IMG/VR virus record: IMGVR_UViG_2511231106_000004
Coordinates: 1 to 64,000 of that record
Strand: one strand, 5' to 3'
Origin: a virus
Lineage: Duplodnaviria > Caudoviricetes
DNA length: 64,000 nucleotides
The notes under the pieces were generated by a model that had not been told where the DNA came from, searched no databases, and saw only the letters and a program-made list of their open reading frames with translations. The translations under genes and the position numbers were made by a program. Below, one piece after another: positions 21,518 through 36,200 of this stretch; position 1 is the stretch's first letter, and each line of letters opens with the position of its first letter.

Positions 21518-21577
21518 TTTCTTCACTTCCTTTTCTTTCAGTATATCACATGACCTGGGTAAAAAAGTCGACAGTAA

Positions 21578-21616
21578 AAAAAAGCCATGGCAGGATTTTT
21601 CCCACCATGGCTCTCT
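21578..21616 (-). terminator. Late-operon terminator
   Basis: aaaaaagccatgg...ccatggct hairpin after the lysis genes. Confidence 0.65.
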
Positions 21617-22051: not shown

Positions 22052-22061
22052 TGATCCCCAC
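21699..22061 (-). CDS. Overlapping-frame type II membrane protein (putative i-spanin)
   Basis: KKR + LVLIAVLVVVLSAGLLGLYVY TM segment, then a helical domain; nested in an alternative frame. Confidence 0.5.
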   Translation of the reverse strand: MGIIEKKRLVLIAVLVVVLSAGLLGLYVYHNGGGTDPVGNEYHRAADHQHQITEGIQSTEETHGGIGNAIDRSADRITESQETVQSARESVERTGEDLDQAGRILADCQRILSRVRERKQ

Positions 22062-22165: not shown

Positions 22166-22720
22166 TCATCCTTTCTGGGCCACATAATCCGTCACCCCGC
22201 GGGCAATGGCACGGGCAAATTCGTCCTTCCGGTTCATCAGGAGCTGTACATCTTCCTCATTGGTGATGAACGCCGTTTCCACCAGGACCGCCGGCATATC
22301 CGTCTCCCGGAGCACCGCCAGCCCCGGCCGTTCCTTTACGCCCCGGTCCACGGTCCCCAGGCTCTGGACAATCTGGTTCTGGATGCATTCCGCCAGACCG
22401 CAGACTTCTGCACTGTCACTGCTGTACACCAGAGTTTCCGTCCCCTGGGCTTCTTCTGCAGCTGCCGCATTGCAGTGGATGGACAGGAACAGGTCCGCCT
22501 GCCACCCGTTGGCACTGGCACAAATGTTGGTATAATTGGGAGACTCCCCGCAGAGATTGTCGGACTGGACCAGCAGGCAGTTATAACCCACCCGGTTCAG
22601 GTACTGCTGGACTCCTGCCCCGATTTCCTTCACGATACCGGCTTCCGTGACGCCGTATTTGTCATTGACAGCCCCGCTGTCCACACCGGGCATATGCCCT
22701 GGATTGATAAAAATCTTCAT
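22166..22720 (-). CDS. Endolysin, N-acetylmuramoyl-L-alanine amidase (Amidase_3)
   Basis: INPGH, E, FLSIHCNA, AVLVETAFITN Zn-amidase motifs. Confidence 0.95.
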   Translation of the reverse strand: MKIFINPGHMPGVDSGAVNDKYGVTEAGIVKEIGAGVQQYLNRVGYNCLLVQSDNLCGESPNYTNICASANGWQADLFLSIHCNAAAAEEAQGTETLVYSSDSAEVCGLAECIQNQIVQSLGTVDRGVKERPGLAVLRETDMPAVLVETAFITNEEDVQLLMNRKDEFARAIARGVTDYVAQKG

Positions 22721-23031
22721 TTTTTCTCCTCCTTTTCAAAGTGGTCCGGGATGCCGTTCCCGTCAAGATCCACAAAGCAGCCTGCAATGAAGGTGACAAA
22801 CCCCACCATGGCAGGCCCGACCAGTTCCCGCACCATGGCCAGAAGGTCCGGCAGCTGGATTTTCCCCGTCACCGCCAGATACAGCCAGAAGCCATAGTAG
22901 GAAAGCACAAAAAGAAAGACCGTCACAAGATACCCTATGACGATCCATTTGATGGGCTGCTGGAATTGGTTCAGGCGTGCTTTCACCGCATCCAGGCCTT
23001 TAGTCAGTATCCCTTTTACTTTTTCAAACAT
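22717..23031 (-). CDS. Putative holin (2 TM)
   Basis: Two hydrophobic segments and a charged C-terminus; directly upstream of the endolysin. Confidence 0.7.
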   Translation of the reverse strand: MFEKVKGILTKGLDAVKARLNQFQQPIKWIVIGYLVTVFLFVLSYYGFWLYLAVTGKIQLPDLLAMVRELVGPAMVGFVTFIAGCFVDLDGNGIPDHFEKEEKK

Positions 23032-23312
23032 GGCGGATTCCCCAGATTACTGTGATCGTGGATGCGGTCCACTTCTCCCTTCAGGTCCTTGTACCGGTGC
23101 CACAGGTTGTCGATATTGGTCTCGATGCCTGCCTGGGCCACCCGCATTTCGTTGATGAGCCCCGTCAAATCTTCCAGAGCTTTGGTGTTGTTGTCGATGC
23201 TTTTGTGGAGCGCCTGGTTCTCGATTTTTTGTGGCCGCAGGATCAGCCAGCACCCGAAGACTGCCAGGGCACTGATTACCGCGTTCACAAAAGTGTAGCT
23301 AATGAAGTTCAT
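23016..23312 (-). CDS. Holin-like membrane protein (N-terminal TM + coiled coil)
   Basis: TM followed by IDNNTKALEDL; lysis-cassette position. Confidence 0.65.
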   Translation of the reverse strand: MNFISYTFVNAVISALAVFGCWLILRPQKIENQALHKSIDNNTKALEDLTGLINEMRVAQAGIETNIDNLWHRYKDLKGEVDRIHDHSNLGNPPCLKK

Positions 23313-23330: not shown

Positions 23331-23984
23331 TTATCTTCGATCTCCCGAAACATGGAGAGCCCGGCCTTTGTACCGTCCCTTTTCGGTGCCGCAGTACACG
23401 TCTTCCGTAGGACTCCAGGCAAAGGAGAACCAGTTCTCCCCTTGGGTCAGCTCCTGGGTCTGGCCGGCGTGGCTCACATAAACCGGCTCCTTCCAGAAGG
23501 CAGATCGTTCAAACACCAGGCTTCCCTCGATCCGACCGTAATGGATCCGGGCCTTCACATGATGCACACTCCAGCTAAAGGCCCGGTCCAGTTTGTGGAG
23601 GTCGGCCATGGCTACATGAGGAAAACGGGAGAAGTCATGAGTGCGGCTTCGGAGTTCCGGCTGGCCCTTGGGCAGGAATACCTTCATAAAGGTATCCTTC
23701 CCGGACTTGTCAATCTGCACAAAGGAGCACAGACTCAGAGTCCGCAGCAGCTCCTGGGGCCCCAGATCCATCACCTGGAGAATCTCCCGGAAGTTGAACA
23801 GGGGATACACGGACCCTGTGATGGGGTTCTTCAGGATCACCGTGGAGGACCCGCTCCGAAGGGCATCCAGGTTGATGGCCACTCGTTTGTTGCTGCAGGA
23901 GAAGCTCAGTCGCCTTTCTTCCAGATCCAGGGAAATGGTATCCGTTGTCTGCACCGCCTCCGGGAAGATAAAGAGATGGTTCAT
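23331..23984 (-). CDS. Hypothetical protein of the rSAM cluster
   Basis: ATG overlaps the rSAM2 stop (ATGA); 217 aa. Confidence 0.75.
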   Translation of the reverse strand: MNHLFIFPEAVQTTDTISLDLEERRLSFSCSNKRVAINLDALRSGSSTVILKNPITGSVYPLFNFREILQVMDLGPQELLRTLSLCSFVQIDKSGKDTFMKVFLPKGQPELRSRTHDFSRFPHVAMADLHKLDRAFSWSVHHVKARIHYGRIEGSLVFERSAFWKEPVYVSHAGQTQELTQGENWFSFAWSPTEDVYCGTEKGRYKGRALHVSGDRR

Positions 23985-24943
23985 GGCCGGTTCACTTCCT
24001 TCTGGAACCAGGTGTAGAGGGCCTTGTAGAACCGGCACTCCAGAGCATGCTCCTGGCTGACGATGCAGGCCCCGCCGCACGTACCGTAAACGGAACACTG
24101 GCGGCACTCGGGGCTGAGAGCATCCAGAAGGACCTGCTGTTCCTTCAGCCAATCCGTGCCTAGCTTTTCTTTCCGGATGTACAGACAGGGATACGCCTGC
24201 CCTTTGGCATCCACCTTCCGGAGAGTCCGGTTGCTGCAGTAGGTTTCTCCGTACATGTACTGAACCTCCCTGCGCCGTTCCAGGGTCTGGTAAAGTCCTT
24301 CATACCGCAGATCTTTTATCCCGAAGCGTTTCAGCCGGGACAGGTACAGTCCCACGTACTTCTTGTACTGTTCCAGGATGGAATCGTAGTCTTCCCGGGT
24401 CAGGGCATACTTCCGATTCTCCTCGTTGGTTACATGCATGAGATGCGGGAAGAAGGACAGATTCCTGCCGATGACTTTCTCCTTCTCCCGGAACTTTGCC
24501 ATAATGGCTCCCAGGTCCGTATTCCCATGGTACAGGGTGGTGGAAACCGCCAGGTCCGGGTAATCCAATAGATCGGTGAAAGGATCATACCCCCGCAGGT
24601 CCCTTTCTGCCCCATCATAGCTGATGCAGATTTGGAAGTAATGCTCCCGGAAATAATCCAGGTGCTTTTCGATGCCGATGCCGTTGGTGCTGACCGCAAA
24701 CTTCGCCTGGGGCACTGCTTCCACCACTTTCCGGATTTCCTTCATGTAAAGCAGAGGTTCCCCTCCCATGAACTTGATGGCTCTAGGAGGATTCCGTTTC
24801 AATTTTGCCAGAAATTCTTCTGAAATGCCCCCTTCCCCATCCGAAGCCTCCCGGTGGCAGTAGGCACAGTGGAGATTGCACTGGCTACCTAAATAAAGGG
24901 TGATTTGAACCTGTGTCGGCAAATCCATCTTGTTTTTTTGCAT
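23981..24943 (-). CDS. Radical SAM/SPASM-domain protein 2
   Basis: CNLHCAYC, GGEP, STNG; YPC and CRQCSVYGTCGGAC SPASM motif. Confidence 0.93.
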   Translation of the reverse strand: MQKNKMDLPTQVQITLYLGSQCNLHCAYCHREASDGEGGISEEFLAKLKRNPPRAIKFMGGEPLLYMKEIRKVVEAVPQAKFAVSTNGIGIEKHLDYFREHYFQICISYDGAERDLRGYDPFTDLLDYPDLAVSTTLYHGNTDLGAIMAKFREKEKVIGRNLSFFPHLMHVTNEENRKYALTREDYDSILEQYKKYVGLYLSRLKRFGIKDLRYEGLYQTLERRREVQYMYGETYCSNRTLRKVDAKGQAYPCLYIRKEKLGTDWLKEQQVLLDALSPECRQCSVYGTCGGACIVSQEHALECRFYKALYTWFQKEVNRP

Positions 24944-24944
24944 A

Positions 24945-25775
24945 TTACCCCTGCCTTCCAACAAACACCAGATAGTCGTTCCACACCTCGTACCACTTTC
25001 TCCCCAGCTTAATCTTCACCGGGCCTTCGTACCCAAAGGGATACAGCCGGAAACTGCCTGTTCCGTTTACCAACCTGACCCGTCTGTTGTTCACAAGGCC
25101 GGCAGAAGATTCTACAAAGACTTCTTCGTCATCAATATCCCGGGTTAGCTTCTCCTTCGTAGAGAAATCTCCTTTGTACTTTTGGATGGTAAAATCGATA
25201 TAATCCTTATCACCTTCCGGGGTGAAGGGTTCTTCCGGATCTCCATCAATCAGGTATCCTTTCCGGTTGGCCATCAGTTCCCGGTCCCCAGCGGAAAGGC
25301 TGTAGCTGTCCCAGAGTTTCATCCTGGGATGATCCCCCAGGATCAAGTCGCTGGTGTTAAAGGGCAACAGTTCATATTCCTGGTCCGTGTCAAGGGTCAG
25401 GTTTTCCTTCTGCCCGTTGAACATCCGCACCACAATATCCCGCTGGCCTTCCGCCATGATGCCCGTATCGATATCGAGGATGGTGGTATTTCCATAAAGC
25501 TGGGTCAGGACGGCAAAGTCCAGCTTGATGGATACTCCCAGCCGGTTAAGGTCAAGGAACCGGTAGTCCGAGGCCATGGGACGGCGGAACAGTTTCACGG
25601 TCCCGTTTCCTTCTGTAAGAACGTAGGAACTGTAAGGATGCATGGTCTCGATCACATCCGCTCCCTTCCGGCTTTCGCTGTTGCTGGTGCATTCCGCCTT
25701 GCAGTAATCGCCCCGGAGAGTCAGGTGGATCAGGTAGTCAGCATTGGATTCCTCGTTGTAATAGATCTTCAGCAT
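24945..25775 (-). CDS. Hypothetical protein of the rSAM cluster
   Basis: 276-aa ORF coupled to both neighbours; RBS GGAGG. Confidence 0.8.
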   Translation of the reverse strand: MLKIYYNEESNADYLIHLTLRGDYCKAECTSNSESRKGADVIETMHPYSSYVLTEGNGTVKLFRRPMASDYRFLDLNRLGVSIKLDFAVLTQLYGNTTILDIDTGIMAEGQRDIVVRMFNGQKENLTLDTDQEYELLPFNTSDLILGDHPRMKLWDSYSLSAGDRELMANRKGYLIDGDPEEPFTPEGDKDYIDFTIQKYKGDFSTKEKLTRDIDDEEVFVESSAGLVNNRRVRLVNGTGSFRLYPFGYEGPVKIKLGRKWYEVWNDYLVFVGRQG

Positions 25776-26179
25776 ACCCCTTCCTCCTTGTCTGCTACAT
25801 CGTACCCATTGACCAGGACATCCTTGCCACCCTCGATGGTCAGGCGATAGCCGGTGACTTCTTCCTTTTTGATTTTCATCACATCCTCCTGCATCTTTCT
25901 CCCTTCAAAAAGCATCTGGATTCGTCCATTCATAGCCTTCCGCACGCCTTTGAGGGAGATGGCGCTTCGCAACCCAGTAAGGGTGAAAAGAAGGCTGTTC
26001 CCCGCCAGGACCAGGTCTTTGTTCCGTTCAAAATGGAGTGTCTGATGGAGCTGGACCTGTTCTACCATCAGCAGGTTCCTTGCCCGATGGCCCCGGTCCA
26101 CCACCAGCATTCCCGGTTTTAGATTCTCTACCGGCACAGGCCCTTCCGCCGTACTTACGTTTCCTTTTGCAATGATCAT
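25769..26179 (-). CDS. Stand-alone degenerate Hint (Hedgehog/intein) domain protein
   Basis: IAKGNVSTAEGPVPVENLKPGMLVVD resembles Hint block A; GYRLTIEGGKDVLVNGYDVAD resembles blocks F/G; lacks Cys1 and His-Asn. Confidence 0.65.
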   Translation of the reverse strand: MIIAKGNVSTAEGPVPVENLKPGMLVVDRGHRARNLLMVEQVQLHQTLHFERNKDLVLAGNSLLFTLTGLRSAISLKGVRKAMNGRIQMLFEGRKMQEDVMKIKKEEVTGYRLTIEGGKDVLVNGYDVADKEEGVC

Positions 26180-26193
26180 AAGTTGTTCCTCCT

Positions 26194-26565
26194 TTAGCTG
26201 TCATCCGAGCAATTGCAGTTGCAGTCGCAATTGCAGTTCTGGGTCATGTAATACTGGCATTTCTGGCACCCCTGGCAGGTTTGGCACCCTTGACAAGTCT
26301 GGCATTTTTGGCATCCCTGGCATGTCTGGCAAGACTGGCACCCCTGACAAGTCTGGCAGCAGTTGGCCTGGCAACAGTTTCCCGAAAAGGCCTCCTCTAG
26401 TTTGTTCACCGCTGTTTCCAGGGCTGCCACGTTGATTTTCTTCACCTTGTCATAGTTCATCGAGGAAAGGTCGATGGAAATCTTCGTCTTTGTGGCAAGG
26501 GTCTCCAGTCCCGACTGGATGTCCGTCAGGTCCTTCTTCCATACAATCTCGTTCTGACTTGCCAT
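26194..26565 (-). CDS. Cys-rich (CQx)12 repeat protein, putative rSAM substrate (123 aa, 20 Cys)
   Basis: MASQNEIV... ends CNCDCNCNCSDDS; RBS GGAGGAGG. Confidence 0.85.
   Translation of the reverse strand: MASQNEIVWKKDLTDIQSGLETLATKTKISIDLSSMNYDKVKKINVAALETAVNKLEEAFSGNCCQANCCQTCQGCQSCQTCQGCQKCQTCQGCQTCQGCQKCQYYMTQNCNCDCNCNCSDDS
26254..26376 (-). repeat. 9-bp tandem repeat TG(C/T)CAGnnn encoding CQx units
   Basis: Twelve consecutive CQx codon triplets. Confidence 0.85.
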
Positions 26566-26566
26566 C

Positions 26567-26929
26567 TTATGGCCCTCCTCCCGAATCGTCCGAGCAGTTA
26601 CAGTTGCTACAGTTGCAGTTGCAATCGCACTGCCCTCTCGTCTGGCAGGTACAGTTCCTCGAGCTGCACTGGCTGATGCTCTGGCAGGTTTGGCAGGAAC
26701 TGGACTGACATTTCTGGCTCTGACATCCCTGGCAGGTCTGGCATTTCTGGCACGACTGGCAGAAGGTGCAGTTTCCGCAGTTGTCCACATTGGCCCCGTA
26801 GGCATTGAGCTGTTCCAGGGCCGTCTGGAGTTCCGTCACATGGATGGCCTTCACCTTCAGCTCACTGGTATCTGTGAGGGCTGTCGTGTCCGTGAAGGTG
26901 GTTTTATTGATGGTTCCGTTCTTTGCCAT
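26567..26929 (-). CDS. Cys-rich protein, putative rSAM substrate (120 aa, 19 Cys)
   Basis: Helical N-terminus (KAIHVTELQTALEQL), CQx repeats, ends CDCNCNCSNCNCSDDSGGGP. Confidence 0.85.
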   Translation of the reverse strand: MAKNGTINKTTFTDTTALTDTSELKVKAIHVTELQTALEQLNAYGANVDNCGNCTFCQSCQKCQTCQGCQSQKCQSSSCQTCQSISQCSSRNCTCQTRGQCDCNCNCSNCNCSDDSGGGP

Positions 26930-28025
26930 GGTTCTTCTCCAATAGCTTCTGCCCGTACTGCTGGATGGCTATCAGGACCGGAGTGAAAACGGCCCGCTTG
27001 AGCCGGCAGTAGGATCCCTTCCGGGCTTTGTCCCCCACCAGCTTGCAGCCGCCCTGACAGAAGGCGAGAGCTGTACAGGACAGGCACTCTTTTCGATACT
27101 CATGGGTGTGGTCCCCAGCAAGGATCCGCTGCAAGTAACTGAAGTACCCGTCATGGATGGTGCCGGCTTTCCGGGAGGTGTTGTGGCAGGGATACAGATT
27201 GCCCTGGAGATCCAGGTTCAGTACCGTGAGGCCGTTCCCGCAGGCCGCCGTGTACCGGTCCCACTTGCCTTTTCCCGTCAGGTAGAAATCCTTCAGGGAT
27301 CCAAAAAGCTGACGGATGTAGGCTTCTTCCGTGTACCGATCCGGGGGGACCCGTTTCCCAAAGCCGTCCAGGAACTGGAGGGCCATGGCCGTCATCTCCC
27401 GCTTCACCCGGCTGTAGTCTATGTCCAGCAGATTCTTCTTCGGAAGGCCCGTATCCATGATCTCGTCCAGGTTCACGGCAATCTGGTACCCATGGATGAC
27501 ACTGTACTCCTCCGAAATCTTCTGGAATGCCTGAAGCACTTCCCGGGGATAGGCTTTGGCGGAAAGGACGGCAGAAAGACAGAGATGTCCCAGGGCCAGG
27601 ATCCGTTCCCGGGTTTCCGGCACGGAAAACACATCGTATCCCCGGGTTTCCCTCACGTGAGGTCCGTCCCAGGACACACAGACCGTAAAATTCCGGGCAT
27701 TAAAAAAACGGACCATTTCATCCGTGAGGGCCCGGCCATTGGTAATGATCCCAAAGGTCATGTTCAATTTGCGTTTCTTAACAGCAGCCACCACTTCCTG
27801 GATGGTGCCAAAGTACAACAGAGGCTCCCCGCCGTAGAACTGCAGGTGGAGGGGCCGGGAGTTTTCTTGAGAAATCTTTTCCAGGAAGTCGTAGATTTCT
27901 GGGTTGACCTCCCGGGTCAGAGGCTTATGCACCAGAGGATGCTGCAGACAGTAAGCACAGTTCATATTGCAGGAATTCCCCAGCATGAGGAATACCGTGT
28001 TAATGTTCCGTTTTAAATATTTCAT
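26904..28025 (-). CDS. Radical SAM/SPASM-domain protein 1
   Basis: CNMNCAYC, FYGGEP, ITNG, SWDG; CGNG..GNLYPCH..CLSCTALAFCQGGC SPASM; ATG overlaps the tail fibre stop. Confidence 0.93.
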   Translation of the reverse strand: MKYLKRNINTVFLMLGNSCNMNCAYCLQHPLVHKPLTREVNPEIYDFLEKISQENSRPLHLQFYGGEPLLYFGTIQEVVAAVKKRKLNMTFGIITNGRALTDEMVRFFNARNFTVCVSWDGPHVRETRGYDVFSVPETRERILALGHLCLSAVLSAKAYPREVLQAFQKISEEYSVIHGYQIAVNLDEIMDTGLPKKNLLDIDYSRVKREMTAMALQFLDGFGKRVPPDRYTEEAYIRQLFGSLKDFYLTGKGKWDRYTAACGNGLTVLNLDLQGNLYPCHNTSRKAGTIHDGYFSYLQRILAGDHTHEYRKECLSCTALAFCQGGCKLVGDKARKGSYCRLKRAVFTPVLIAIQQYGQKLLEKNHGKERNHQ

Positions 28026-29794
28026 CTTCCACTCCTTACGATGATCTTCACCAGCCGCACGTTTTCTGCGGTATCGTCCTTCACGATCTGTCCCACCGCC
28101 TGGGTAAGACTTTCGCCCGAAAGGGCCATCCGGCCCACTCCCGGCATTTCGGAAGGGATCACCCATCCGCCTTTCTTGGCTTTCCCATACATCCGGACAG
28201 GCACACGGCCGGCCAGGGCTACGGGGATATACGTAGGGAGGTTCACTTTCAGGATGTCGTCCCCCGGAGAAAGGGTCCGGCCACCGATGATGGAAGCGAA
28301 ATCTTCCGTATGGACTCCCACCACACACAGGCTGCCGGCAGTGGCTTTGATATATTGCTCTTTGCCAGAAGTTTCGTCCAGGGCAATGATGTCTCCCCGC
28401 TGAGTATCCCCGCCCCGGGGAAAGAATTCAGCGTAGTCGTTATAGACCGCGTTGTAGACTTTGGTGGCGGTAATCGTACCCGGAAAAGACGTATTCCCAG
28501 AGGCATCCAGCAGCACAGCTTCTCTTACAAGGGCTCCGAAATAGTTATCTTTTTGGCTATCACTCGTATTCCATTTATACTGTCTAACATAGATGGGTTC
28601 GGCATTGTCATCCCCAGTGGCCAATTCTACCCATCCCGCATTCTCAGCGCCTCCTACCCGGATGCGAAACCGGTCGGAAGTACCACATTTTGCGTAAACC
28701 AAATCGGTGGGGGTATCCACAGGAGCTTCGCTTTCCACCTTAGCGGCCTTCGGATACACTGCCGGCTTGTTCTTCACAAAGGCCTTGCTGTTGGTATCCG
28801 TCACATTCCAGTCGGCCTGTACCTGGTTACTCAGAGCCCCGCTTTGGGCATCGCTGGCAGCTTGGGCCATTTCCGTTTTTGTGGCATAAGTCTCCTGGAT
28901 ATTGTTTCCTGCCGCATCGGAGGTTGCCTTTACCGCGGTTCCGTTCTTATCGAGTTTGGTGCTTATGAGATTGGTGATCGTAGCAGCAAAGTTGGGATCA
29001 TTGCCCAGCGCCGCAGCCAATTCATTCAGGGTATCCAAAGTTTCCGGAGTCCCGTTGAGAACGGATTGAATTGCGGCGGTAATGGCAGCTGCCACGAAAG
29101 CCGTGGTCGCTCCCTGGGTATTGTTTGTCCCGGTCGGTGCCGTGGGAAAGGTCACTTTTCCGGTAAAGTCAGCACCGGACAGATTGGCCTTCTTGGGAAG
29201 GTCGTTGTTGACCAGAGCCGTGTATTTATCCGCGGCCGCTTTCGCACTGGCTGCTGCGTTGGCTGCACTCTTCCCGGCATTGGTGGCCTGGGTAGCAGCC
29301 CCTTCCTGGGAAGCCTTGGCTGCCGCTGCACTGCTGGCAGAGGCTTTGGCACTGGTGTCCGCGGCCTTGGCACTGGCAGATGCTTCGGCAGCACTTTTGG
29401 AAGATGCTTCTGCCCAGGTCTTAGCGGACTTGGCTCCGGCAATCCCGTCCGGGTTTCCAGTACTTTCTGCCCAGGCCCGTGCGGTTGCTGCCCATGTCTT
29501 GCTGGACCGGGCATTTGCAATCCCGTCCGGATTGGTATCACTCTCCGCCCACTGCCGGGCTGTATCTGCCCAGACTTTAGAAGATCGGGTTCCTTCCCCG
29601 GCGGGAGGGCTGTCGCTTTCCGCCCAGGCTTCCGCCATGTTCTGGCTGTTGAGGGCATTCTCTGCATATTCCCCGGCTTTGTTTTTGTATTCCCGGGCCT
29701 GGTCGGCGGCATAGGTATCCGCCACGTCTCCCAGTTCCACTTCCGTGTTATTTTGGACGGTCAGCGTCACTTCCACATTGCCAGTATCAGACAT
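28022..29794 (-). CDS. Tail fibre protein with C-terminal Peptidase_G2-like autocleavage/chaperone domain
   Basis: AWAES repeats, Ala-rich shaft, TLDTLNELAAALGNDPNFA fibre motif, NDYAEFF...VALAGRVPVR. Confidence 0.85.
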   Translation of the reverse strand: MSDTGNVEVTLTVQNNTEVELGDVADTYAADQAREYKNKAGEYAENALNSQNMAEAWAESDSPPAGEGTRSSKVWADTARQWAESDTNPDGIANARSSKTWAATARAWAESTGNPDGIAGAKSAKTWAEASSKSAAEASASAKAADTSAKASASSAAAAKASQEGAATQATNAGKSAANAAASAKAAADKYTALVNNDLPKKANLSGADFTGKVTFPTAPTGTNNTQGATTAFVAAAITAAIQSVLNGTPETLDTLNELAAALGNDPNFAATITNLISTKLDKNGTAVKATSDAAGNNIQETYATKTEMAQAASDAQSGALSNQVQADWNVTDTNSKAFVKNKPAVYPKAAKVESEAPVDTPTDLVYAKCGTSDRFRIRVGGAENAGWVELATGDDNAEPIYVRQYKWNTSDSQKDNYFGALVREAVLLDASGNTSFPGTITATKVYNAVYNDYAEFFPRGGDTQRGDIIALDETSGKEQYIKATAGSLCVVGVHTEDFASIIGGRTLSPGDDILKVNLPTYIPVALAGRVPVRMYGKAKKGGWVIPSEMPGVGRMALSGESLTQAVGQIVKDDTAENVRLVKIIVRSGR

Positions 29795-30122
29795 TGTGAG
29801 CCACCCCCTTGATGATGAAAGATTTGGTAAAGAAACAGGTGAGGATCCGTTCCGTCTCGCTGTTCATGATCGCCATGTCGTAGATGTATGCTCCAGGCTC
29901 CAGGGAATCCAGAGCTCCCTTGGGCACCACCACATCCACGAAGTTGTTGTTGGGATTGTAAAAGGTATCCGTATACACTACTTCGGAAGAGTTCGTGGTC
30001 TTCTTGATGGCAAAGACCACTTTGTCCGCATTGGTCAGCTTGTAGTTGCTAAACCGGAACCGGATGGAAAAGGTATCGTATTGGGATACCTGGATATTCT
30101 TGTTTTCGTCAATGACCAGCAT
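29787..30122 (-). CDS. BppU-like baseplate/fibre adaptor protein
   Basis: YDTFSIRF...VFAIKK...GAYIYDM...SFII beta-sandwich pattern; position. Confidence 0.65.
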   Translation of the reverse strand: MLVIDENKNIQVSQYDTFSIRFRFSNYKLTNADKVVFAIKKTTNSSEVVYTDTFYNPNNNFVDVVVPKGALDSLEPGAYIYDMAIMNSETERILTCFFTKSFIIKGVAHNV

Positions 30123-30123
30123 C

Positions 30124-30768
30124 TTAGCCTCCTCCCGAATCATCGCTGCAGTCACAGTTACAATTGCAGTTGCACTGGGAATTCTCTTTCCAGTATTCTT
30201 CCGTATGAGATCGGTTCACCAGTTCCTGCAGGATGCGCCGGAGGGTGTAGGTTCCTGCCGGGATCCCCCGGTGTTTCCGGATATGGTAAGCAGACTTGAT
30301 GGACAGCGGTCTCGGTACCGATGTGGGGCCTGTCTCCACATCCCAGGAATTCAAACCCATCACCCGGGCGTCCTTGTCTGCCTGAGTGCTGGAAGTAACC
30401 GCAATTTCCACCTGATCGATGAGCCGATCATCGGTCAGTGTTCCCATCCCGTTATAGGTAACCTGTACTGTTTTTCCTGCATCTGCGGCAGAAAACTTCA
30501 GGGTCCCGGTATTCCACCCTTCAATGCCGTGCTCCGTAGTCAGGTAATCTGGCCAGTACTGTCCCTGGGCCGGTTCTTCCGACACTTCCGTCAGGAGCAC
30601 CCCATTTTGATATTTCACTTGCAGTGTGGTGGGCGATGTTTTTTGGGGCACTTCCGCCAGCCGGATGGTATAGGGGCTGTTGCTGGGGATCACGTGGGTT
30701 TCGTCGAAGATTTTCTTGATGTCAAAGGTGTTGTCAAAGGGATTGAATCGATAATCATGGATGGCCAT
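30124..30768 (-). CDS. Tail-module protein with C-terminal CNCNCNCDCSDDSGGG tag
   Basis: MAIHDYRFNPF..., coupled (TGATG) to the tail hub gene; tag shared with the Cys-rich proteins. Confidence 0.85.
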   Translation of the reverse strand: MAIHDYRFNPFDNTFDIKKIFDETHVIPSNSPYTIRLAEVPQKTSPTTLQVKYQNGVLLTEVSEEPAQGQYWPDYLTTEHGIEGWNTGTLKFSAADAGKTVQVTYNGMGTLTDDRLIDQVEIAVTSSTQADKDARVMGLNSWDVETGPTSVPRPLSIKSAYHIRKHRGIPAGTYTLRRILQELVNRSHTEEYWKENSQCNCNCNCDCSDDSGGG

Positions 30769-32012
30769 CAGCTTCCTCCTTTCCATTGTTTCAGGGCCGA
30801 AGACTGGGACTGCTCGATATCCTTGGACCGCCGTTCGATTTCTGACAGATACCGGTCCACGGAAAATTGGGGCTCGCCCAGCTCCATTTCGGTCTTGATG
30901 CCCTTTTCCCCGGAGAGGGTGTATTTGATCTTCTTGATAGGATAGGTATCCGCATTCCCATCCAGCCTTCGGATTTCCGCCAGCCCGTAAGTAGACATAT
31001 GTCGGACGTTGAAGGTCCCGTCCGGGTAAGGGTACTCCAGTCGCACCCCGCTGATCTTGGCGGATTTCACAGGAGCCTTGTACTGGCTGATCTGGTTTTC
31101 GCCCCACCTTTTGGCATCGGCGGCATCGTAGGCTTCCGGCAGGTTCCAGACGGCCTGGTGGACCCCGTAGCTGTTCTGGCTTTCCTTATCTTCCACAACG
31201 CACAGCCACTGCTCGCCCTGGTCGTCCACGCTGCCCCCCTTGATCCGAGCCCAGTTCACCAGTTTGGACACATCCCAGGAAGGGGTGTAGGAAGTAATGT
31301 GTTTTCCTACCGTAAGACGGGCCTGTTCGTTCACTGCTGTCTCTCTGCGGCGAAAGTACAGACACCGGTATTCATCCACTCCGTACACGTAATCCACGGC
31401 AAAGTCCGCCAGGGTATTCAGGGCCTCTTTCACCGTCACCCCGTCAAAGACCAGTTTGGTGGGACGGTATCCCACGCTCTGGATCTTGCTGTCGTTGTAG
31501 ACCACCTGCAATGTCTGCCGTTCCACCTGGCGGGCAATGTCCCGGACGATATCTCCCACGTCCGTATTCTCATAGGTCTTCCAGAGCATCACATTCTCCA
31601 GCCGGTTGTAGAAACCATAGCCTTTGTACACGAACTTGGTATCCGTAGTCCCTTCAATAGGCCGGCTGATGATGTACCCGCTGTACCAGGGTTTCCGGTC
31701 TCCGTACAGGTGGATGTCGATACGCTGCATATAGTCCAGCTGGGCGTTATCCGGCTGCCGGTAAAAGGTCATCTGGCACTGGCCACAGCCGGTGCTGGTG
31801 ATTTCAAAGGTCACTTCATTCAGGGTATTGGCCTCGCTGCCCCCGCCAAAAATAGCCGTCCGGGTCCCGTCCTTTTTGTAGGCATAGACCACGAACTGGC
31901 CGGGATAGTACTCATGGACCTTGCCCCGGTCGCTGTTTCCTTCACCGGCCCCAGTAGGACCGGCAAAGATCCACCGGCCGAACAGGCCCCGTCCAAAGAT
32001 GAAATTCGTCAT
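30768..32012 (-). CDS. Tail hub / Tal-like protein
   Basis: Follows Dit; YENTDVGDIVRDI, SQNSYG patterns. Confidence 0.75.
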   Translation of the reverse strand: MTNFIFGRGLFGRWIFAGPTGAGEGNSDRGKVHEYYPGQFVVYAYKKDGTRTAIFGGGSEANTLNEVTFEITSTGCGQCQMTFYRQPDNAQLDYMQRIDIHLYGDRKPWYSGYIISRPIEGTTDTKFVYKGYGFYNRLENVMLWKTYENTDVGDIVRDIARQVERQTLQVVYNDSKIQSVGYRPTKLVFDGVTVKEALNTLADFAVDYVYGVDEYRCLYFRRRETAVNEQARLTVGKHITSYTPSWDVSKLVNWARIKGGSVDDQGEQWLCVVEDKESQNSYGVHQAVWNLPEAYDAADAKRWGENQISQYKAPVKSAKISGVRLEYPYPDGTFNVRHMSTYGLAEIRRLDGNADTYPIKKIKYTLSGEKGIKTEMELGEPQFSVDRYLSEIERRSKDIEQSQSSALKQWKGGS

Positions 32013-32794
32013 ACAAACCACCTGTTGGTATAGGTAATTTCCACCGTGCCCGCTCCTCCTGTGTACAGAAAGAGGTTGGCTCCCGGTTTGGCATGGAGGA
32101 AGGTGCCCGTAAAGGCATTGATGCTGTTGTCTTTATCCCGCCAGACTGTCCCTTCCCGGCCATTCACAATGGAGGTCTTGGGAGCCACCAGCAGTGCATC
32201 CGTCAGGGTGAACTTCTCTTTGGCTTCCTGGTGCCAGACCGTAAGGTTCGTCATCCGGTCCAGGGGAATGAAGCGGAAAGTGAGAGGCGTATCCACGCTC
32301 CCCAGGTTGTGGAGCACCATTTCTGCCTGCACCGTGGCCTGGGGAAAGACGAACACCACCCGGGATTCCTGGGCTTCGTAGCGGAACGGGTCTGCCAAAA
32401 GCAGGGATACTGTGATGTTGCTCCGCCTCTGTTTGAAACCGTTCTCAAACTTGTGCTTGATCTTGGACAAACAGGCTACATGGTAGACCCGGTCCGGTCT
32501 TCCCGCCATCAGGGAATAATCCGTCTGGCCAAAGAAGGTGTAGGCCTCGTTCAGCACTTCGTCATGGTCTTCTTCCGTAGCACCTTCCATGGAAAACTCC
32601 ACCTGGAGAGTCCGTCCGTCAATCTTTCCATCCCCCACTGCATCACTTCCATGGGCAAAGGCCCGGGACTGGAGCTTGCTCCGAAAAGTATAGCTGCCGC
32701 TGTCCGTAAGGCTCCAATGGACCGGCAGCTTGTATTCCACCCCGTCTTTGGTGATGGTAAAATTCTGTTCGTTTTCTTTTCTTTCCGGAAACAT
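32009..32794 (-). CDS. Distal tail protein (Dit)
   Basis: Downstream of the tape measure; ADPFRY, NLGSVDTP, PGANLF. Confidence 0.8.
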   Translation of the reverse strand: MFPERKENEQNFTITKDGVEYKLPVHWSLTDSGSYTFRSKLQSRAFAHGSDAVGDGKIDGRTLQVEFSMEGATEEDHDEVLNEAYTFFGQTDYSLMAGRPDRVYHVACLSKIKHKFENGFKQRRSNITVSLLLADPFRYEAQESRVVFVFPQATVQAEMVLHNLGSVDTPLTFRFIPLDRMTNLTVWHQEAKEKFTLTDALLVAPKTSIVNGREGTVWRDKDNSINAFTGTFLHAKPGANLFLYTGGAGTVEITYTNRWFV

Positions 32795-32830
32795 GCTCTT
32801 TCACCTCCTGGTTCCCACTACCTTTTTTTA

Positions 32831-33133
32831 TCAGTTGTTGGAATCCTGATCAAAGGGAACGAAGTCCCCATGATTAATTTCATACCGGATTACCACGTCA
32901 CCATCCTGTTTGGTGATGGCCACATCATTTTCCACGTAGGATTCAATCAGGTGTCCATTGACCATCCGTTTCTGGTAGCAGGTGGGGTTCCGATCCGTGA
33001 TTCCAGTTCCAGGATCCCCCACGATTTCGCGGATGTCAGTAGCAAAAGCCGTTCCCGCAATGCCAGCTACCAGGGCCAGAGTCATTGCCATCATTTTCAT
33101 GTTCTTCATCGTGCATCTCTCCTTTTTGTGCAT
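32831..33133 (-). CDS. Small secreted moron protein
   Basis: Signal peptide ending TAFA; inserted between TMP and Dit. Confidence 0.7.
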   Translation of the reverse strand: MHKKERCTMKNMKMMAMTLALVAGIAGTAFATDIREIVGDPGTGITDRNPTCYQKRMVNGHLIESYVENDVAITKQDGDVVIRYEINHGDFVPFDQDSNN

Positions 33134-33216
33134 AAAGATAGGGCAGCCGGTTTTCCGGCGCCCTTGTAGAAAGCTATTAAATTCAGGTATAAGTAAAATT
33201 GTTCCAACGGTTGGCT

Positions 33217-36200
33217 TTACGCTCCTCTCAGTCCTGCCAGGACAGCATCGGTGAAGCCATCCATCAGATCATCCAGATCTGCGGCGTTGTTGATGTCTCC
33301 GTAGTTGTTGAACGTGGTGTTCATTTCCCGGTTGTCCGTAGATTCGCTGGAATTTGTGATGCCTTCGGCAATGCTGTCGAACACCGCCCTGTTCAGGGGT
33401 AAGGCCACTTCGTCACCGGCATCCCCCAGGACACCAATAAGAGGTCTTGTAAAATAGCCGCCTTTGGCATAATGAGGAGTCTTCCCCGCTCCCTGGGCCG
33501 CACCGGCAGCCGTATTGGACGCAGCTGCTGCCATGCCGATGCCCACTGCCGCGGACGTACCTCCCGTCAGAAGGCCCGTAGCGATGGGACCTGCAGACGG
33601 GTCGATGACCAGTTTCAGCCAGGCCGCAGGAGCCAGAGCCCCGGCCGCTGCCGTTCCCTGAGCCACCGTCTTGGCGGCACTGGCCGCATTGAGCTTATCC
33701 CCGAAGAGAGCTGTCACCAGCATCCCGGACAGCATCTGGGAGAAATAGCTTGCGATGGTTTTCAGCATGGCCTTTCCCAGATCCAGGAAGGCATCCTTGG
33801 CGTTCTTGGCCCCAGTCAGGATATCCGTAAAGGCTGTCTCCAGACCGCTTAAGGTGGTGGACGCCATGTCCGCGATGAGTTCCAGGGTTCCCATATGGGC
33901 ATTCATATAGGCTTCCTGGTAGGTATCCATGAGAGACTTTTCCGCATCGATGTTGCTTTGCCGGAGGGCCATTTCTGCTGTGAGAGTCTCCTGCAGCATG
34001 GCCAGGGAATTCTGGTTGTAGGCTTCATCCAGAGCTGCCTGGATGTCTTTCCCCTGGGCAAAGTAGGCGTTCCGTTCCTCCATATAGCTTTTGTAGGCTG
34101 CTGCTTTTTCCAGATTGGCCTGTTTGTCAAAGGCAATCTCGTTGGCACTGGCCTGTTCATAGGCAATGCCTTTTTCCTTCAGAGCGTTCAGGAATACAGC
34201 CTTTTCACTGGCCGTCAAAGAAATAAAGTCCTGGGACAGCTTGGCGTACTTGTCATCAATGGACGCCACGGCCTTTTCCATGTCGGACTGCATCTTCATG
34301 ACTTCCTGTTCCTGTTTGGAACCATAGAGGGTAAGTTTGGCAGTAACGGCATCAAAAGACAGGTCCCGGGCTTTGTTCATCAGTTCCCGGTTTTTGGCCT
34401 GTTCTTCCGAAAGGGCGTCCAGGCGCTTCTGGGCATATAGCTCTGCCAGACGGGTCTTATCCCGTTCGTAGTTCTCGTTGGCAGACCGGGATTTTTCCAG
34501 TTCGTCCGTTTCTTCCTTGTACCAACGATCCACCAGGGCACTCTTGGTCTGGAATGTCCGGAACCATTCTTCTTCGATACTCTTGCTGGTCTGAATAGCG
34601 GCATTGGCCAACTGATCTGTTTCTCTGGAGCTTCCTCCCCCTCCGCCACCACCAGAACCACCGCCGCCTCCTCCACCTCCAGAAGGAACTGGGATATCCC
34701 CACCTCCCCCTCGAAGATTGCTGAAGTCCGGCAGCTTAAATTCCCGTTTGGCAGGAGTGCTACTGCCCCCGCCACCTTCTCCACCGCTTTCGCTACCCAT
34801 GGAACCCAGAGCATTGTTGGTTTCCAGGATTTTCTGGATCAGGCTGGAGAGCCAGCTAATGGCTTCGCTGACAAAGTTGGCGATAGTGGAAAGGCCGCTG
34901 GAAGCCCAGGAAGGAAGAATACTATCCGCCATGTCAGACAGAATGCTTCCCACTTCATCGATACAGGAACCGATGCCTTCCACCAGATAGGTGAAGGCAT
35001 TGAGAATCCAGGTCACACATTCACTGAGGACACTGATGAAGTTCAGCACCCCGTTCACCACGGCTCCGATGATCTGGAGGGACGCATAGAAGGCGGCTCC
35101 CATCACGGCAGCCACCAGGGTGAACACCGGCTCCATTGCCTGGAGATTGGCGATGATGGTCTGGGCCGCGGCACTGATCATTGCCTGCACAGAATCCACA
35201 GCCCGGGTGACCGTTTCCATCTTGATGCCCATAGTCCCCAGCACATCTTCCACGGTCATCCCGCTTTTCCAGATGGCATAGAGGGCCGTAGCCACCGCTG
35301 CCGCAGCCGCGATAAAAGGAGCTGCAGCCACTACTGCTGCCACAAAAGGAGCCGCCATCAGGGCCACCTTGGCCACAAAAAGTCCAATGGCCGGAATGGC
35401 AAGGCCAGTGAGAGTACTCACAATGAGGAGGATTCCTGCCTGGAATTCAGGAGGAATGGCTGTCATAAGAGCTTCCGTAAGTCCGGAAGACTGGACGGTG
35501 GCTGCAAAGTTCGTCAGCATATCCCCCAGGGACTGGAAAATCCCCGTCAGGTTCAGGGCTTCCGCAAGCTGGAGCCCTACCTGGGCCGCAGACTGTTCCA
35601 GCCCATCCATCAGGGTGGACCAGGTACCGCTGATGGTCTGGCTCTGCTGATCCATCATGCCCCCAAAGGACTGCTCCATGCCGCCGACTAAGGCCGTGAT
35701 GCCCGTTGCCGCGTCAATGGCTCCCTTGGACACCATGCTCATGGCTTCCGGCACAGACACACCGATCTGGTCTGCCAGCATCTTCCAGGCAGGGATCCCG
35801 GTTTCGGTAAACTGCATCATTTCACCGGCCTGGACCTTGGACTTGGCGGCCATCTGGCCCAAAGCCAGGGTGATCCGGTTGACGCCTTCCGCCCCAAGAC
35901 CGACCCCAGCCGCGGCATCCCCAACTGCCGTAAGGGTCGGTATAACCTGTTCTGCAGAAAACCCAAAGGCGATGAACTTCTGGGCCGCCTGGGACACCTG
36001 GCTGAACTCAAAGGGGGTCTTGGCCGCAAAGTCCTGCATCTTGGCCAGAAAGTCCTGGGCTTTTTCCGCGCTCCCCAGCATATTGGTGAAGGCAGTCTTG
36101 GTACTCTGGAGACTGGCCCCTGCTTTCACAGATGCCACTCCCAGGGCAGCCAGGCCGGCCCCGATGCCGCCTAAGACGGCCAGGGATTTCTTCGAAACGT

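Follow-up and report, generated by a model that had tools for sequence, protein, structure and literature searches.

The question raised by this locus is what two radical SAM enzymes and their cysteine-rich neighbors do in the tail module of a phage. The locus is a prophage of gut Negativicutes, analyzed here within a stretch of 64,000 nucleotides (the window). The first-pass annotation had proposed a RiPP-like system that acts on tail components rather than a secreted bacteriocin, and this proposal was supported by a cysteine tag on the tail-module protein p214, by Asn-Cys-tagged fibres in other phages, and by the co-occurrence of radical SAM genes with such tags. We consider it moderately probable that the locus is a late-expressed maturation module for cysteine-tailed, fibre-type virion proteins; its chemistry is inferred, without experimental data.

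Organization of the cassette

Gene calls confirmed seven tightly coupled genes between the tail-fibre and lysis genes, in the order originally given and all on the minus strand: rSAM1 (373 aa; 26904..28025), CysA (120 aa; 26567..26929), CysB (123 aa; 26194..26565), a Hint-like gene (136 aa; 25769..26179), hyp276 (276 aa; 24945..25775), rSAM2 (320 aa; 23981..24943), and hyp217 (217 aa; 23331..23984). Their starts and stops overlap or nearly abut, and the rSAM1 ATG overlaps the stop of the fibre gene. Upstream on the same strand lie the genes of the tape measure, Dit, and a Tal-like tail protein (30768..36357; PHROG matches), followed by p214 (30124..30768), p111 (29787..30122), and the 590-aa tail fibre (28022..29794). 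The late operon ends with two small genes (98 and 104 aa) and an endolysin gene (22166..23312, minus strand; PHROG E value, 8.5e-61); the small proteins are presumed to be holin-like from their position. A Pfam scan of ten proteins found no exporter, protease, or immunity-type domain, and no leader protease, exporter, or signal peptide was present among the cassette proteins, in agreement with the first-pass annotation, which had seen neither an exporter nor an immunity gene.

p111 matched phrog_1084, a family of unknown function, and was syntenic in all related loci. The 590-aa fibre matched PHROG tail-fibre families and the tail collar fibre of PDB 9d93. Its C-terminal ~160 aa form an intramolecular-chaperone-like domain that travels with the cassette: residues 429–587 share 47% identity with the fibre of locus L036, which passes as Pfam Peptidase_G2 IMC, and this C-terminus was kept in loci whose fibre or tail module otherwise differed.

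The full cassette was syntenic in 22 IMG/VR loci and in 13 genome loci (Acidaminococcus, Megasphaera, Succiniclasticum, and Selenomonadaceae), with identities as low as about 50%. In other phage lineages (L036, L051, L053, and L055), rSAM1 homologues of 33–47% identity adjoined A-type and B-type cysteine proteins, and L051 contained only rSAM1, CysA-Hint, and CysB-Hint ahead of the endolysin. The earlier view of the seven genes as one system needs correction in that the set is not indivisible: the core recurring across phage lineages is fibre, rSAM1, CysA, and CysB. hyp217 had no match in Pfam, NCBIfam, PHROG, PDB, or Atlas; its 93 clusters include named members from Negativicutes only, and it was absent from L036, L051, and L053. 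It is confined to its own lineage, and any role for it is a matter of inference.

Radical SAM enzymes and their cysteine-rich neighbors

A regular-expression search recovered the radical SAM motif and the full set of seven-cysteine SPASM motifs in both enzymes, as had been claimed. CxxxCxxC, CX13GX4C, and CxxCx5CxxxC occupy residues 19–26, 262–280, and 314–327 of rSAM1 (Pfam Radical_SAM and Fer4_12) and residues 22–29, 236–253, and 280–293 of rSAM2. Because the cluster motif starts ~20 residues from the N-terminus, no N-terminal RRE is possible in either enzyme, and none had been seen before. The best NCBIfam family for both was PapB (NF047865; 111 bits for rSAM1 and 57.5 bits for rSAM2, cut-off 340), and the nearest families (PapB, CcpM, QhpD, and SCIFF) are Cys-thioether maturases. 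The best PDB match of rSAM1 was CteB (5wgg). Against the proposal, both enzymes scored far under every curated NCBIfam cut-off, and neither belongs to the large clade formed by the tag-associated radical SAM enzymes of phages; function cannot be transferred to them by orthology. rSAM1 formed a 10-row clade that always adjoined CysA/CysB-type genes. rSAM2 formed a separate 7-row clade adjoining hyp276 and hyp217 homologues, including in locus L163, in which they come directly after a p214-like tagged protein.

CysA contains 19 and CysB 20 cysteines, against a Cys content of 1.5% in the strand's long ORFs, spaced by three in the (CQx) part and then by two in the CxC end, exactly as first described. 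CysA consists of an N-terminal part, a helix, and a Cys-rich part (window 26570–26779) in which (CQx) repeats are followed by a CxC..SDDSGGGP end; its A-type subfamily (..NVDNCGNC..) is always paired with a B-type protein. CysB, whose family of 135 clusters has conserved columns, is composed of two N-terminal helices, NCCQANCCQ, (CQx)11, and NCNCDCNCNCSDDS, with the Cys-rich part at window 26197–26376. AF2 predicted helices at residues 10–27 and 43–62 with moderate confidence, consistent with the helical N-terminal half noted earlier, and the Cys region had a pLDDT <50. Among the points against maturation of virion proteins here are that no confident AF2 structure was obtained for the Cys region of CysB, that neither CysA nor CysB has a recognizable virion-attachment domain, and that Gln at +1 and +4 from Cys matches the spacing of no characterized motif. 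The number of repeats varies freely among homologues.

A third ladder protein is found in the tail module itself. All five cysteines of p214 lie within its last 16 residues as a C-terminal Cys tag (..CNCNCNCDCSDDSGGG, window 30127–30174), in which three of the Cys and two Asp do not vary among homologues as distant as 49% identity. A structural role of p214 is inferred from gene position only, which also counts against the proposal, and its single PHROG match is weak. p214 (30124–30768) is a further tagged protein inside the range originally marked out (23331–30768), in addition to the seven genes. p214, CysA, and CysB have a common end, CxCxC-[S/G/T]-D-D, after an amphipathic helix, and judged by its conservation this tag is under selection in three protein families.

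The product of the Hint-like gene scored 24.9 bits against Pfam Hint_2, under the cut-off of 28.4, and from residue 1 onward it aligned with the active Hint domains that relatives carry fused behind the tag. In the window, the start Met replaces Cys1, and the block-B His is gone. In relatives, the Cys region can have an F5/8-type-C-like domain ahead of it and, directly behind it, an active Hint domain with Cys1 and S/TxxH; these fused architectures suggest, at the level of domain content, a fibre or adhesin role. By alignment, the free-standing Hint domain is a split-off, inactivated remnant of the self-cleaving domain fused to the tag in relatives. Its separation and inactivation may be explained by genes that already stop at the tag, and it cannot cleave anything because it is a separate polypeptide without Cys1 or His.

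The AF2 model of hyp276 (pLDDT 93.8, pTM 0.89) is mostly beta, with an Ig-like C-terminal domain that matched Ig-like domains of intimin, invasin, and GH2 (Z about 9). Its whole-fold matches were uncharacterized phage proteins, including a 295-aa protein of Ralstonia phage RP12 that adjoins three radical SAM genes. The hyp276 HMM weakly matched ORFs in 11 unrelated tagged-protein loci, and hyp276-like ORFs lay directly downstream of the tag wherever coordinates were compared. hyp276 is inferred to be a likely docking or partner protein of the enzyme–substrate system.

Tagged fibres and radical SAM genes in other phages

The isolated Achromobacter phage JWF encodes a T4 gp36-like fibre (gp028) that ends in ..NCNCDCNCNCS and continues into an active Hint domain, with a radical SAM gene two genes downstream, ahead of the endolysin. 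IMG/VR was scanned with the pattern N-C-[ND]-C-N-C-[ND]-C, and the motif lay ≤15 aa from the C-terminus in 49 of 56 coding matches. A tagged protein was assessable when at least 3 kb of downstream DNA was available, and a radical SAM ORF was sought within 4 kb on the same strand. Such an ORF was observed for every assessable Asn-Cys-tagged protein (32/32), compared with only 1/7 internal motifs and 4/23 short ORFs. The Asn-Cys-tagged proteins formed 17 clusters, and five of the eight tested matched PHROG tail-fibre families; some of the ladder proteins are collagen-like, with PHROG tail-fibre matches. Since similar pairs of ladder and enzyme mark true tail fibres in many unrelated phages, the enzymes of the window probably cross-link fibre tips. 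No published account of radical SAM enzymes cross-linking fibre tips was found in the literature. Against the proposal, the homologous region ORF68–76 is missing from the proteins listed for the virion of Ralstonia phage RP31 by gel-based mass spectrometry; that survey was shallow, and the small tagged ORF was unannotated.

Proposed chemistry and competing explanations

The most likely chemistry, by analogy with PapB and CrpC, would be thioether cross-linking of fibre-type virion proteins, which is untested. The substrates would be p214, CysA, and CysB, which have the tag in common; CysA and CysB carry the (CQx) ladder as well. Before lysis, in the cytoplasm, the RRE-less rSAM1 and rSAM2 would abstract hydrogen from acceptor residues, and Cys sulfur would be joined to carbon to give ranthionine-type thioethers like the products of PapB, CrpC, and QhpD. 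The acceptors are inferred to follow Cys: in the tag they would be the two Asp residues or the carboxylate of the C-terminus, and within the repeats they would be Gln or Asn. The product may be a stiff tip or stalk resistant to reduction and proteases. rSAM1 would serve the (CQx)n proteins; hyp276 and rSAM2 behave like the pair of Ig-like partner and enzyme that follows Asn-Cys-tagged fibres in other phages and therefore probably serve the CxC tag. With no RRE in the enzymes, hyp276 may take over substrate docking, or it may cap the tip. This inferred division of work resembles the earlier idea of one enzyme per Cys periodicity, which is compatible with the gene neighborhoods but unproven.

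QhpD, a SPASM radical SAM enzyme, modifies a structural protein subunit and not a natural product, forming Cys-to-Asp/Glu thioethers. Its substrate QhpC, the small subunit of quinohemoprotein amine dehydrogenase, parallels the cross-linking of protein subunits proposed here, but it belongs to a periplasmic enzyme, carries one defined set of links, and has no phage context, and rSAM1 and rSAM2 scored 88 and 38.6 bits against the QhpD family (TIGR03906; cut-off 453). The CrpC study also names QhpD as a parallel (PMC13692751). CrpC of Methanococcus voltae, likewise a SPASM radical SAM enzyme, introduces ranthionine links into CrpA, a Cys-rich protein of 29 kDa that contains C-X-X-Q/D motifs; as proposed for the window, the substrate is a protein and not a short peptide (PMC13692751). 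Like CysA and CysB, CrpA has a non-repetitive N-terminal part and C-terminal Cys repeats, with Gln/Asp acceptors after Cys, and the genes of two related substrate-like proteins are neighbors. However, CrpC, a member of TIGR04463 (rSAM1, 47.6 bits; cut-off 525), possesses an RRE, CrpA carries ten 17-residue C-X-X-Q/D repeats instead of CQx triplets and a CxC-SDD end, and the Crp cluster is cellular and archaeal, lacking a phage context, a fibre, a Hint domain, and an Ig-like partner. PapB forms its link between Cys and the carbon adjacent to a downstream carboxylate, tolerates variable spacing, and accepts Asp, Glu, or the C-terminus (PMC12373016). This linkage, found in the ranthipeptide freyrasin, fits a tag in which Cys is followed by Asp-Asp at the C-terminus; unlike the window enzymes, PapB docks a leader peptide via an RRE, and its substrate PapA, which has CSANDA repeats, is a short peptide of the secreted type.

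In the tip of the T4 long fibre, iron is held by HxH repeats, and CxC/CQx ladders in a trimeric fibre could similarly coordinate metal ions or iron–sulfur centers along its axis, with the enzymes catalyzing another reaction or making only a few thioethers. Spacings of two and three would place all thiols on one strand face, and AF2 would be expected to fail on the region alone if folding depends on a cofactor or oligomer. The authors of the CrpA study also suggest that CrpA may bind metals (PMC13692751). We regard this explanation as unlikely, because metal binding alone could proceed without a dedicated enzyme, whereas the tag was followed by a radical SAM gene in all assessable cases, and the nearest enzyme families all modify Cys covalently. 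Metal loading, like the inferred virion incorporation of CysA and CysB, is hypothetical and untested. The same substrates might instead undergo other Cys chemistry, namely anSME-like formylglycine formation, C-C links, or links between chains or proteins, such as fibre to hyp276. anSME structures and families were among the PDB and NCBIfam matches of rSAM1/rSAM2, homologues in phage annotations are already named “anaerobic sulfatase-maturating enzyme,” and neither enzyme is orthologous to a characterized thioether synthase. The sulfatase motif, C/S-x-P/A-x-R, was not found in the substrates when read by eye, the best-scoring families form thioethers, and downstream acidic or amide acceptors are conserved, which leaves this possibility doubtful as well.

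Small Cys-rich proteins beside SPASM maturases are classic RiPP architecture, and CysA and CysB could be precursors with helical N-terminal leaders whose modified cores are freed at lysis as a toxin or signal against competitors or the host. Lysis could substitute for an exporter, and their N-termini lack a known virion domain. Nevertheless, we consider such a role improbable: protease, exporter, and immunity genes were absent by Pfam, the tag is also the end of a tail-module protein in the window and of true tail fibres in other phages, F5/8-type-C-like fusions suggest adhesion, and the cassette genes are translationally coupled to the fibre gene. It is harder still to credit that the Cys-rich proteins are helpers, for example electron carriers or iron–sulfur scaffolds of enzymes whose target is the fibre or a host molecule. 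Their Cys content is high and radical SAM enzymes require a reductant, but the ferredoxin-type motif, CxxCxxCxxxCP, is absent, the tag also ends large fibres, and a freely varying repeat number is unlike a cofactor site.

Among the closest counterparts are the uncharacterized modules of Asn-Cys-tagged fibre and radical SAM enzyme (JWF gp028/gp030 and Ralstonia phages RP12 and RSP15). As in the window, fibre-type proteins there end in a Cys ladder and have a radical SAM/SPASM gene directly downstream; the Ig-like partner is a relative of hyp276, a Hint domain may follow the tag, and the module closes the tail operon. The window enzymes differ in lying outside the 41-row clade of Asn-Cys-module enzymes and in being shorter, without an N-terminal extension; the main substrates proposed for the window are small proteins that occur in pairs and carry a long (CQx)n ladder, the tag has an acidic S-D-D end, the Hint domain is split off and inactive, and the hosts are anaerobic Negativicutes. 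With two enzyme clades of its own, the window represents a distinct (CQx)n subtype. In the fused relatives, the Hint domain after the tag would cut itself off and leave the tag as the new C-terminus, as do the Peptidase_S74/Peptidase_G2 intramolecular chaperones at the C-terminus of phage fibres and the Hedgehog/BIL Hint domains; the relatives keep the Cys1 and S/TxxH block needed for the N-S acyl shift. The window's own fibre uses a Peptidase_G2-like domain instead.

A cysteine-rich cassette in the late operon

All genes of interest are read on the minus strand, in the direction from tape measure to lysis. Gene calls and PHROG matches identified the tape measure protein (33217–36357), Dit (32009–32794), and a Tal-like protein (30768–32012), which are followed by p214 (30124–30768), a tail-module protein with a Cys tag at its C-terminus, by the small protein p111 (29787–30122), and by a 590-aa tail fibre (28022–29794). 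The seven cassette genes lie downstream: the radical SAM gene rSAM1 (26904–28025), the Cys-rich CysA (26567–26929) and CysB (26194–26565), a Hint-like protein (25769–26179), hyp276, of 276 aa (24945–25775), the second radical SAM gene rSAM2 (23981–24943), and hyp217, of 217 aa (23331–23984). Two small proteins then precede the endolysin (22166–22720). Because starts and stops overlap or almost abut, as where the rSAM1 ATG overlaps the fibre stop, the cassette genes were considered part of the late structural operon. A 111-kb IMG/VR record labelled 'provirus' includes the window.

The first-pass annotation had described these genes and their motifs accurately, as judged by Pfam, regex motifs, and Cys counts and spacing. 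It had also reported no exporter, and Pfam analysis of the ten proteins encoded at 23331–30768 indeed gave no transporter or protease domain. The precursor-like proteins are 120–214 aa in length, and the criteria of a canonical sactipeptide or ranthipeptide cluster (short precursor, cleavable leader, and leader protease and/or exporter) were not met.

CysA and CysB contain 19 and 20 Cys, respectively, or approximately 16% of each protein versus 1.5% in the long ORFs of the strand, and a chance origin of the pattern was rejected on this basis. The Cys are spaced by 3 through the CQx part, where every Cys is followed by Gln, and by 2 at the end. The DNA repeats beneath this periodicity match just 72–79%, which indicates that the periodicity is kept at the protein level rather than being the product of recent slippage. 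In p214, all five Cys belong to the 16 C-terminal residues, where they make up the tag also seen in CysA and CysB, so that all three proteins end in an alternating Cys ladder at the extreme C-terminus. In these tags, three to five Cys immediately precede two invariant Asp and the C-terminus; the p214 tag keeps three Cys and the two Asp unchanged across homologues at 49–97% identity.

The CysB family comprises 135 clusters at 90% identity and has neither a name nor a Pfam domain. Conserved in it are, in order, a helix, NCCQxNCCQTCQ, CQx units that vary in number, and a C-terminus of the form (C-N/D)n-[S/G]-D-D. In an AF2 model of CysB (66 sequences), the Cys-rich half had a pLDDT below 50 and no confident fold, and a tblastn search with CysB against isolated phages returned no match. 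A 233-aa database protein, P0121, is a natural fusion of CysA and CysB in a single polypeptide, which suggests that the two act together.

Directly after the endolysin, two ORFs, 144 aa and 120 aa long (21617–22061, minus strand), overlap almost completely in different frames. A signal-like N-terminus and coiled-coil character mark one of them and an N-terminal hydrophobic stretch the other; the two together look like a spanin-type pair. The GC content drops from ~0.55 to 0.35–0.42 immediately past the lysis genes (window 18000–22000), suggesting a cargo region or the prophage end; a small HTH-like ORF (20356–20571) and a 222-aa ORF (20786–21454) are located there.

Radical SAM enzymes and conservation of the cassette

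Both enzymes passed the Pfam Radical_SAM (PF04055) cut-off of 29.5 bits, with 40.6 bits for rSAM1 and 36.4 bits for rSAM2, and regex searches located the CxxxCxxC motif at residues 19–26 and 22–29, respectively. The SPASM criterion was the C-terminal 7-Cys pattern CX9-15GX4C ... CX2CX5CX3C ... C for two auxiliary clusters. Both Cys blocks, plus a later Cys, were found by regex in each enzyme, and both enzymes align to SPASM maturase models along most of their length. A SPASM-domain model was absent from the Pfam families reported for them at E ≤0.1; rSAM1 and rSAM2 satisfy the SPASM criterion at the sequence level, by motif and alignment rather than by a domain match. The PapB family (NF047865) was the best curated match (111 bits for rSAM1 and 57.5 bits for rSAM2), and its cut-off of 340 was not reached. 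The next-best curated families were other Cys-thioether maturases, with every score far below cut-off. For example, rSAM1 scored 47.6 bits against a cut-off of 525 with the CrpC-type TIGR04463, which was absent for rSAM2 among the 25 best families. The best solved-structure relative was CteB.

The initial reading that neither enzyme carries an N-terminal RRE was supported, since CxxxCxxC begins at residue 19 or 22 and leaves no room for one. This exclusion covers the N-terminus only; a C-terminal or internal RRE was outside the search. In the PapB family, by contrast, an RRE docks the leader peptide (PMC12373016).

The position of the two enzymes was examined in a quick maximum-likelihood IQ-TREE analysis of 77 phage SPASM enzymes, of which only three supported clades were used, the deep branches being weak. 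A 41-row clade (support 98) contained the general tag-associated enzymes, including those of Achromobacter phage JWF and Ralstonia phages RSP15 and RP12. The rSAM1 clade (10 rows, support 99) always occurs beside (CQx)n proteins of the CysA and CysB subfamilies (A-type and B-type), and the rSAM2 clade (7 rows, support 99) occurs beside hyp276 and hyp217. Both window enzymes fall outside the 41-row main clade and therefore represent a distinct branch of the theme.

A scan of IMG/VR with rSAM1 gave 22 related loci. Species genomes searched with a CysB profile yielded 13, which belong to Acidaminococcus, Succiniclasticum, Megasphaera, Selenomonadaceae, and a bin carrying the label Dialister. Contigs that extend far enough show every cassette gene in unchanged order, down to ~50% enzyme identity. 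One Selenomonadaceae genome retains the fibre C-terminus and all seven cassette genes, and no match to the Dit, Tal-like, p214, or p111 genes was found in it. Among 401 Negativicutes species genomes, 16 had a match at E ≤0.001; approximately 10 of the matches were strong, and these carry A-type and B-type pairs side by side.

Three other phage lineages have rSAM1 homologues at 33–47% identity beside A-type and B-type Cys proteins. In the 93-kb low-GC phage L036, which has no Hint, CysB comes after the fibre, rSAM1, and CysA and is followed by an unrelated 262-aa protein and then by a further three radical SAM genes. L051 has the fibre, rSAM1, CysA-Hint, and CysB-Hint, with an endolysin gene ~1 kb further; hyp276, rSAM2, and hyp217 were all not found there. 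Further variants of the arrangement of rSAM1 and Cys proteins are seen in L053 and L055. Judging from gene content, the recurrent core is the fibre, rSAM1, CysA, and CysB, since these recur in L036, L051, and other lineages. Hyp217 is limited to the window's lineage and one relative, L163, in which hyp276, an rSAM2-clade enzyme, and hyp217 come straight after a p214-like tagged protein. This order ties the trio of hyp276, rSAM2, and hyp217 to the CxC tag, not to the CQx ladder.

The additional radical SAM genes beside the core (L036:11453-15367 and L053:3620-7264, three in each) are mutually divergent, and L036 has in addition a 339-aa Cys-containing protein with no Pfam match. Given these extra genes, some phages may use more than two modification steps.

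The Hint domain and the hyp276 partner

The Hint families PF13403, PF05203, and PF01079 were considered. The window's Hint-like protein scored 24.9 bits with Hint_2 over residues 7–52 only, below the cut-off of 28.4. Its nature became clearer from longer CysB relatives, in which three kinds of fusion were found: CysA-CysB; an F5/8-type-C-like domain ahead of the helix and Cys ladder (sub-threshold in Pfam, E ~2e-4, four proteins); and, directly after the tag, a Hint domain that has both the canonical Cys1 and an S/T-G-E-H block. For P0127, a fusion of the second kind, no relative was found in IMG/VR. The free-standing protein aligns with the fused Hint domains from residue 1, indicating clear homology, and has its start Met at the Cys1 position; its His is lost, the His column holding N, G, or D across the free-standing forms. 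The requirements for catalysis (Cys/Ser at position 1 and block-B T/SxxH) are unmet, and the window's protein is best described, from its sequence, as a split-off, catalytically dead Hint. The Hint gene of L033, another related locus, is intact. In the fused forms, self-cleavage would make the tag the new C-terminus, and the window's genes stop exactly at the position where such cleavage would leave it.

Many unrelated metagenomic proteins, some of them collagen-like, terminate in this Hint subfamily as well. In the metagenome loci L047–L130, it is found with the junction ..S/G-C|F-x-x-G-T at the end of dozens of unrelated proteins from marine, freshwater, and sludge contigs, among them collagen-like and Pro-rich ones that lack a Cys ladder and whose loci contain no radical SAM gene. 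By this sequence evidence, autoprocessing by a C-terminal Hint is a broader habit of phage-like surface proteins, because the subfamily occurs without ladder or radical SAM gene.

The hyp276 family has 63 representatives, nearly all of 250–310 aa. The AF2 model of hyp276 (40-sequence alignment, pLDDT 93.8) is mostly beta, and its C-terminal domain (156–276) resembles Ig-like domains from intimin, invasin, and GH2 enzymes, with Z ~9. At the level of the whole fold, the matches are all uncharacterised phage proteins close to hyp276 in size (TM up to 0.6). RP12 has a 295-aa protein that matched less well in BFVD (TM 0.32, E 3.7e-5) and sits between a tagged ORF and radical SAM enzymes. With the family HMM, weak but recurrent matches (E 1e-6 to 7e-3) were also obtained in 11 unrelated tagged-protein loci; where coordinates were compared, the matching ORFs are directly downstream of the tag. 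Hyp276 fits the description of an Ig-like partner between the tagged gene and the enzyme, and the recurrence of fold and HMM matches in tagged-protein loci makes it a conserved partner. It is inferred, without binding data, to serve either as a docking protein or chaperone replacing the missing RRE or as a tip-binding structural protein. For hyp276 and hyp217, the ESM Atlas offered nothing usable, and PDB sequence searches with both were empty or insignificant.

Cysteine-tagged fibres and the proposed modification

Achromobacter phage JWF was reached through distant homologues of rSAM1 in isolated phages. Its gp028 is a 483-aa T4 gp36-like fibre that ends in ..NCNCDCNCNCS followed by an active Hint, and gp030, two genes downstream and before the endolysin, is a radical SAM/SPASM enzyme. 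In Ralstonia phage RSP15, a side-fibre fragment ending in ..NCQCGN lies two genes before a radical SAM gene. In the jumbo phage RP12 (NC_041911), a 73-aa ORF (L134:816-1034) lacks annotation; it lies between the annotated genes gp074 and gp075, with three radical SAM genes downstream and YomR-like proteins beside it. The ORF consists of a helix, SHTH.FYD.Y, and NCNCNCAC, with the end ..SHTHVFYDNYGSNCNCNCACTRGSL. RP12 gp074 is a Cys-free paralogue of this ORF with a shared HTH.YYDYY motif. Virion mass spectrometry of Ralstonia phage RP31, a shallow, gel-band-based survey of only 32 proteins, lists none of ORF68–76 in the homologous region and missed the small tagged ORF, which is unannotated. 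Two papers citing JWF make no mention of its radical SAM or Hint gene.

IMG/VR was scanned for DNA encoding N-C-[ND]-C-N-C-[ND]-C, and 79 loci were read. The motif fell within an ORF of ≥90 aa in 56 of the 79, and in 49 of these 56 it was ≤15 residues from the C-terminus. Where a C-terminal tag in an ORF of ≥90 aa was followed by ≥3 kb of downstream DNA, a radical SAM ORF was present ≤4 kb downstream on the same strand in every case (32/32, of which 29 were outside the window's lineage). The corresponding figure was 1/7 for internal motifs in ORFs of ≥90 aa and 4/23 for ORFs of <90 aa, and the four short-ORF hits include clearly real small tagged proteins. The first-pass annotation had named as its refuter that homologous enzymes occur mostly without Cys-rich neighbours. 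Approached conversely, from the tag, the pairing was seen in all assessable loci.

The scan recovered the window's own lineage (L146, L171, L195, and L211), and the window's radical SAM genes likewise lie no more than a few kb downstream of the tag, on the same strand. The 49 tagged proteins form 17 clusters, and collagen-like repeats and well-known fibre motifs occur among them; PHROG tail-fibre families were matched by five of the eight tested. On the evidence of gene neighbourhoods, the pairing of ladder and radical SAM gene is near-universal wherever a Cys ladder occurs, with examples in gut Negativicutes prophages as well as in isolated Achromobacter and Ralstonia phages. Specific to the window are the paired (CQx)n proteins, the two enzyme clades, the acidic S-D-D end common to three proteins, the fossil Hint, and the anaerobic Negativicutes hosts.

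PapB joins Cys sulfur to the carbon adjacent to a downstream carboxylate, either an Asp/Glu side chain or the C-terminus, with little constraint on spacing (PMC12373016), and CrpC puts ranthionine links into a 29-kDa Cys-rich protein whose repeats contain C-X-X-Q/D (PMC13692751). Given these precedents, and because the Cys of the tags precede Asp and the C-terminus, the ladders have Gln, and the ladder of the wider class stands at the very C-terminus, an end that a Hint domain can generate, the favoured reading is that the radical SAM enzymes install thioether cross-links in fibre-type proteins. We consider it somewhat better than an even chance, in the absence of modification, residue, or virion data. 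The ladders could instead coordinate metal, or the same fibre-type substrates could undergo a different Cys chemistry; both are judged unlikely but possible. A RiPP-like product released at lysis is very improbable, since the same tag is carried by tail proteins and genes for export and processing are absent.

Thioether cross-linking also forms part of a fuller and more tentative reading, to which we give rather less than an even chance, in which a thioether ladder, with or without metal, staples p214, CysA, and CysB through two enzyme clades, an Ig-like partner, and Hint. The (CQx)n and CxC segments would become covalently stapled virion rods or tips through an enzyme-made ladder, possibly accompanied by bound metal, and each of the two dedicated enzyme clades would serve one ladder type. 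The Ig-like partner would stand in for the RRE, and the Hint domain, active in relatives and a fossil here, would set the C-terminus.

Tail fibres set the host range of phages and the survival of particles outside cells. The underlying class of chemistry is already known, and no paper was found in the literature on radical SAM enzymes acting on phage fibres or cross-linking fibre tips. If true, the proposal would mean that phages use RiPP-type radical chemistry for virion structure, extending it from small natural products to virion architecture, and would explain widespread 'hypothetical' genes that end tail operons. The product would be a new covalently reinforced host-recognition organelle, unlike disulfides, isopeptides, or HK97-type links, and protein engineering would gain new enzymes and protein staples proof against reduction. 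With three putative substrates and two enzymes, the window is a compact, well-conserved test case, and the isolated phage JWF offers a tractable comparison.

Another ladder periodicity within the same theme is found in L139 (IMG/VR 3300029236_000010), where a 115-aa protein (ORF ~2762–2785) has Cys at every fifth residue (CNQVQ CNQVK CSNVQ CSQVH); an Asn-Cys ladder follows, the end ..GDSDTDG is acidic, and the locus contains three radical SAM ORFs.
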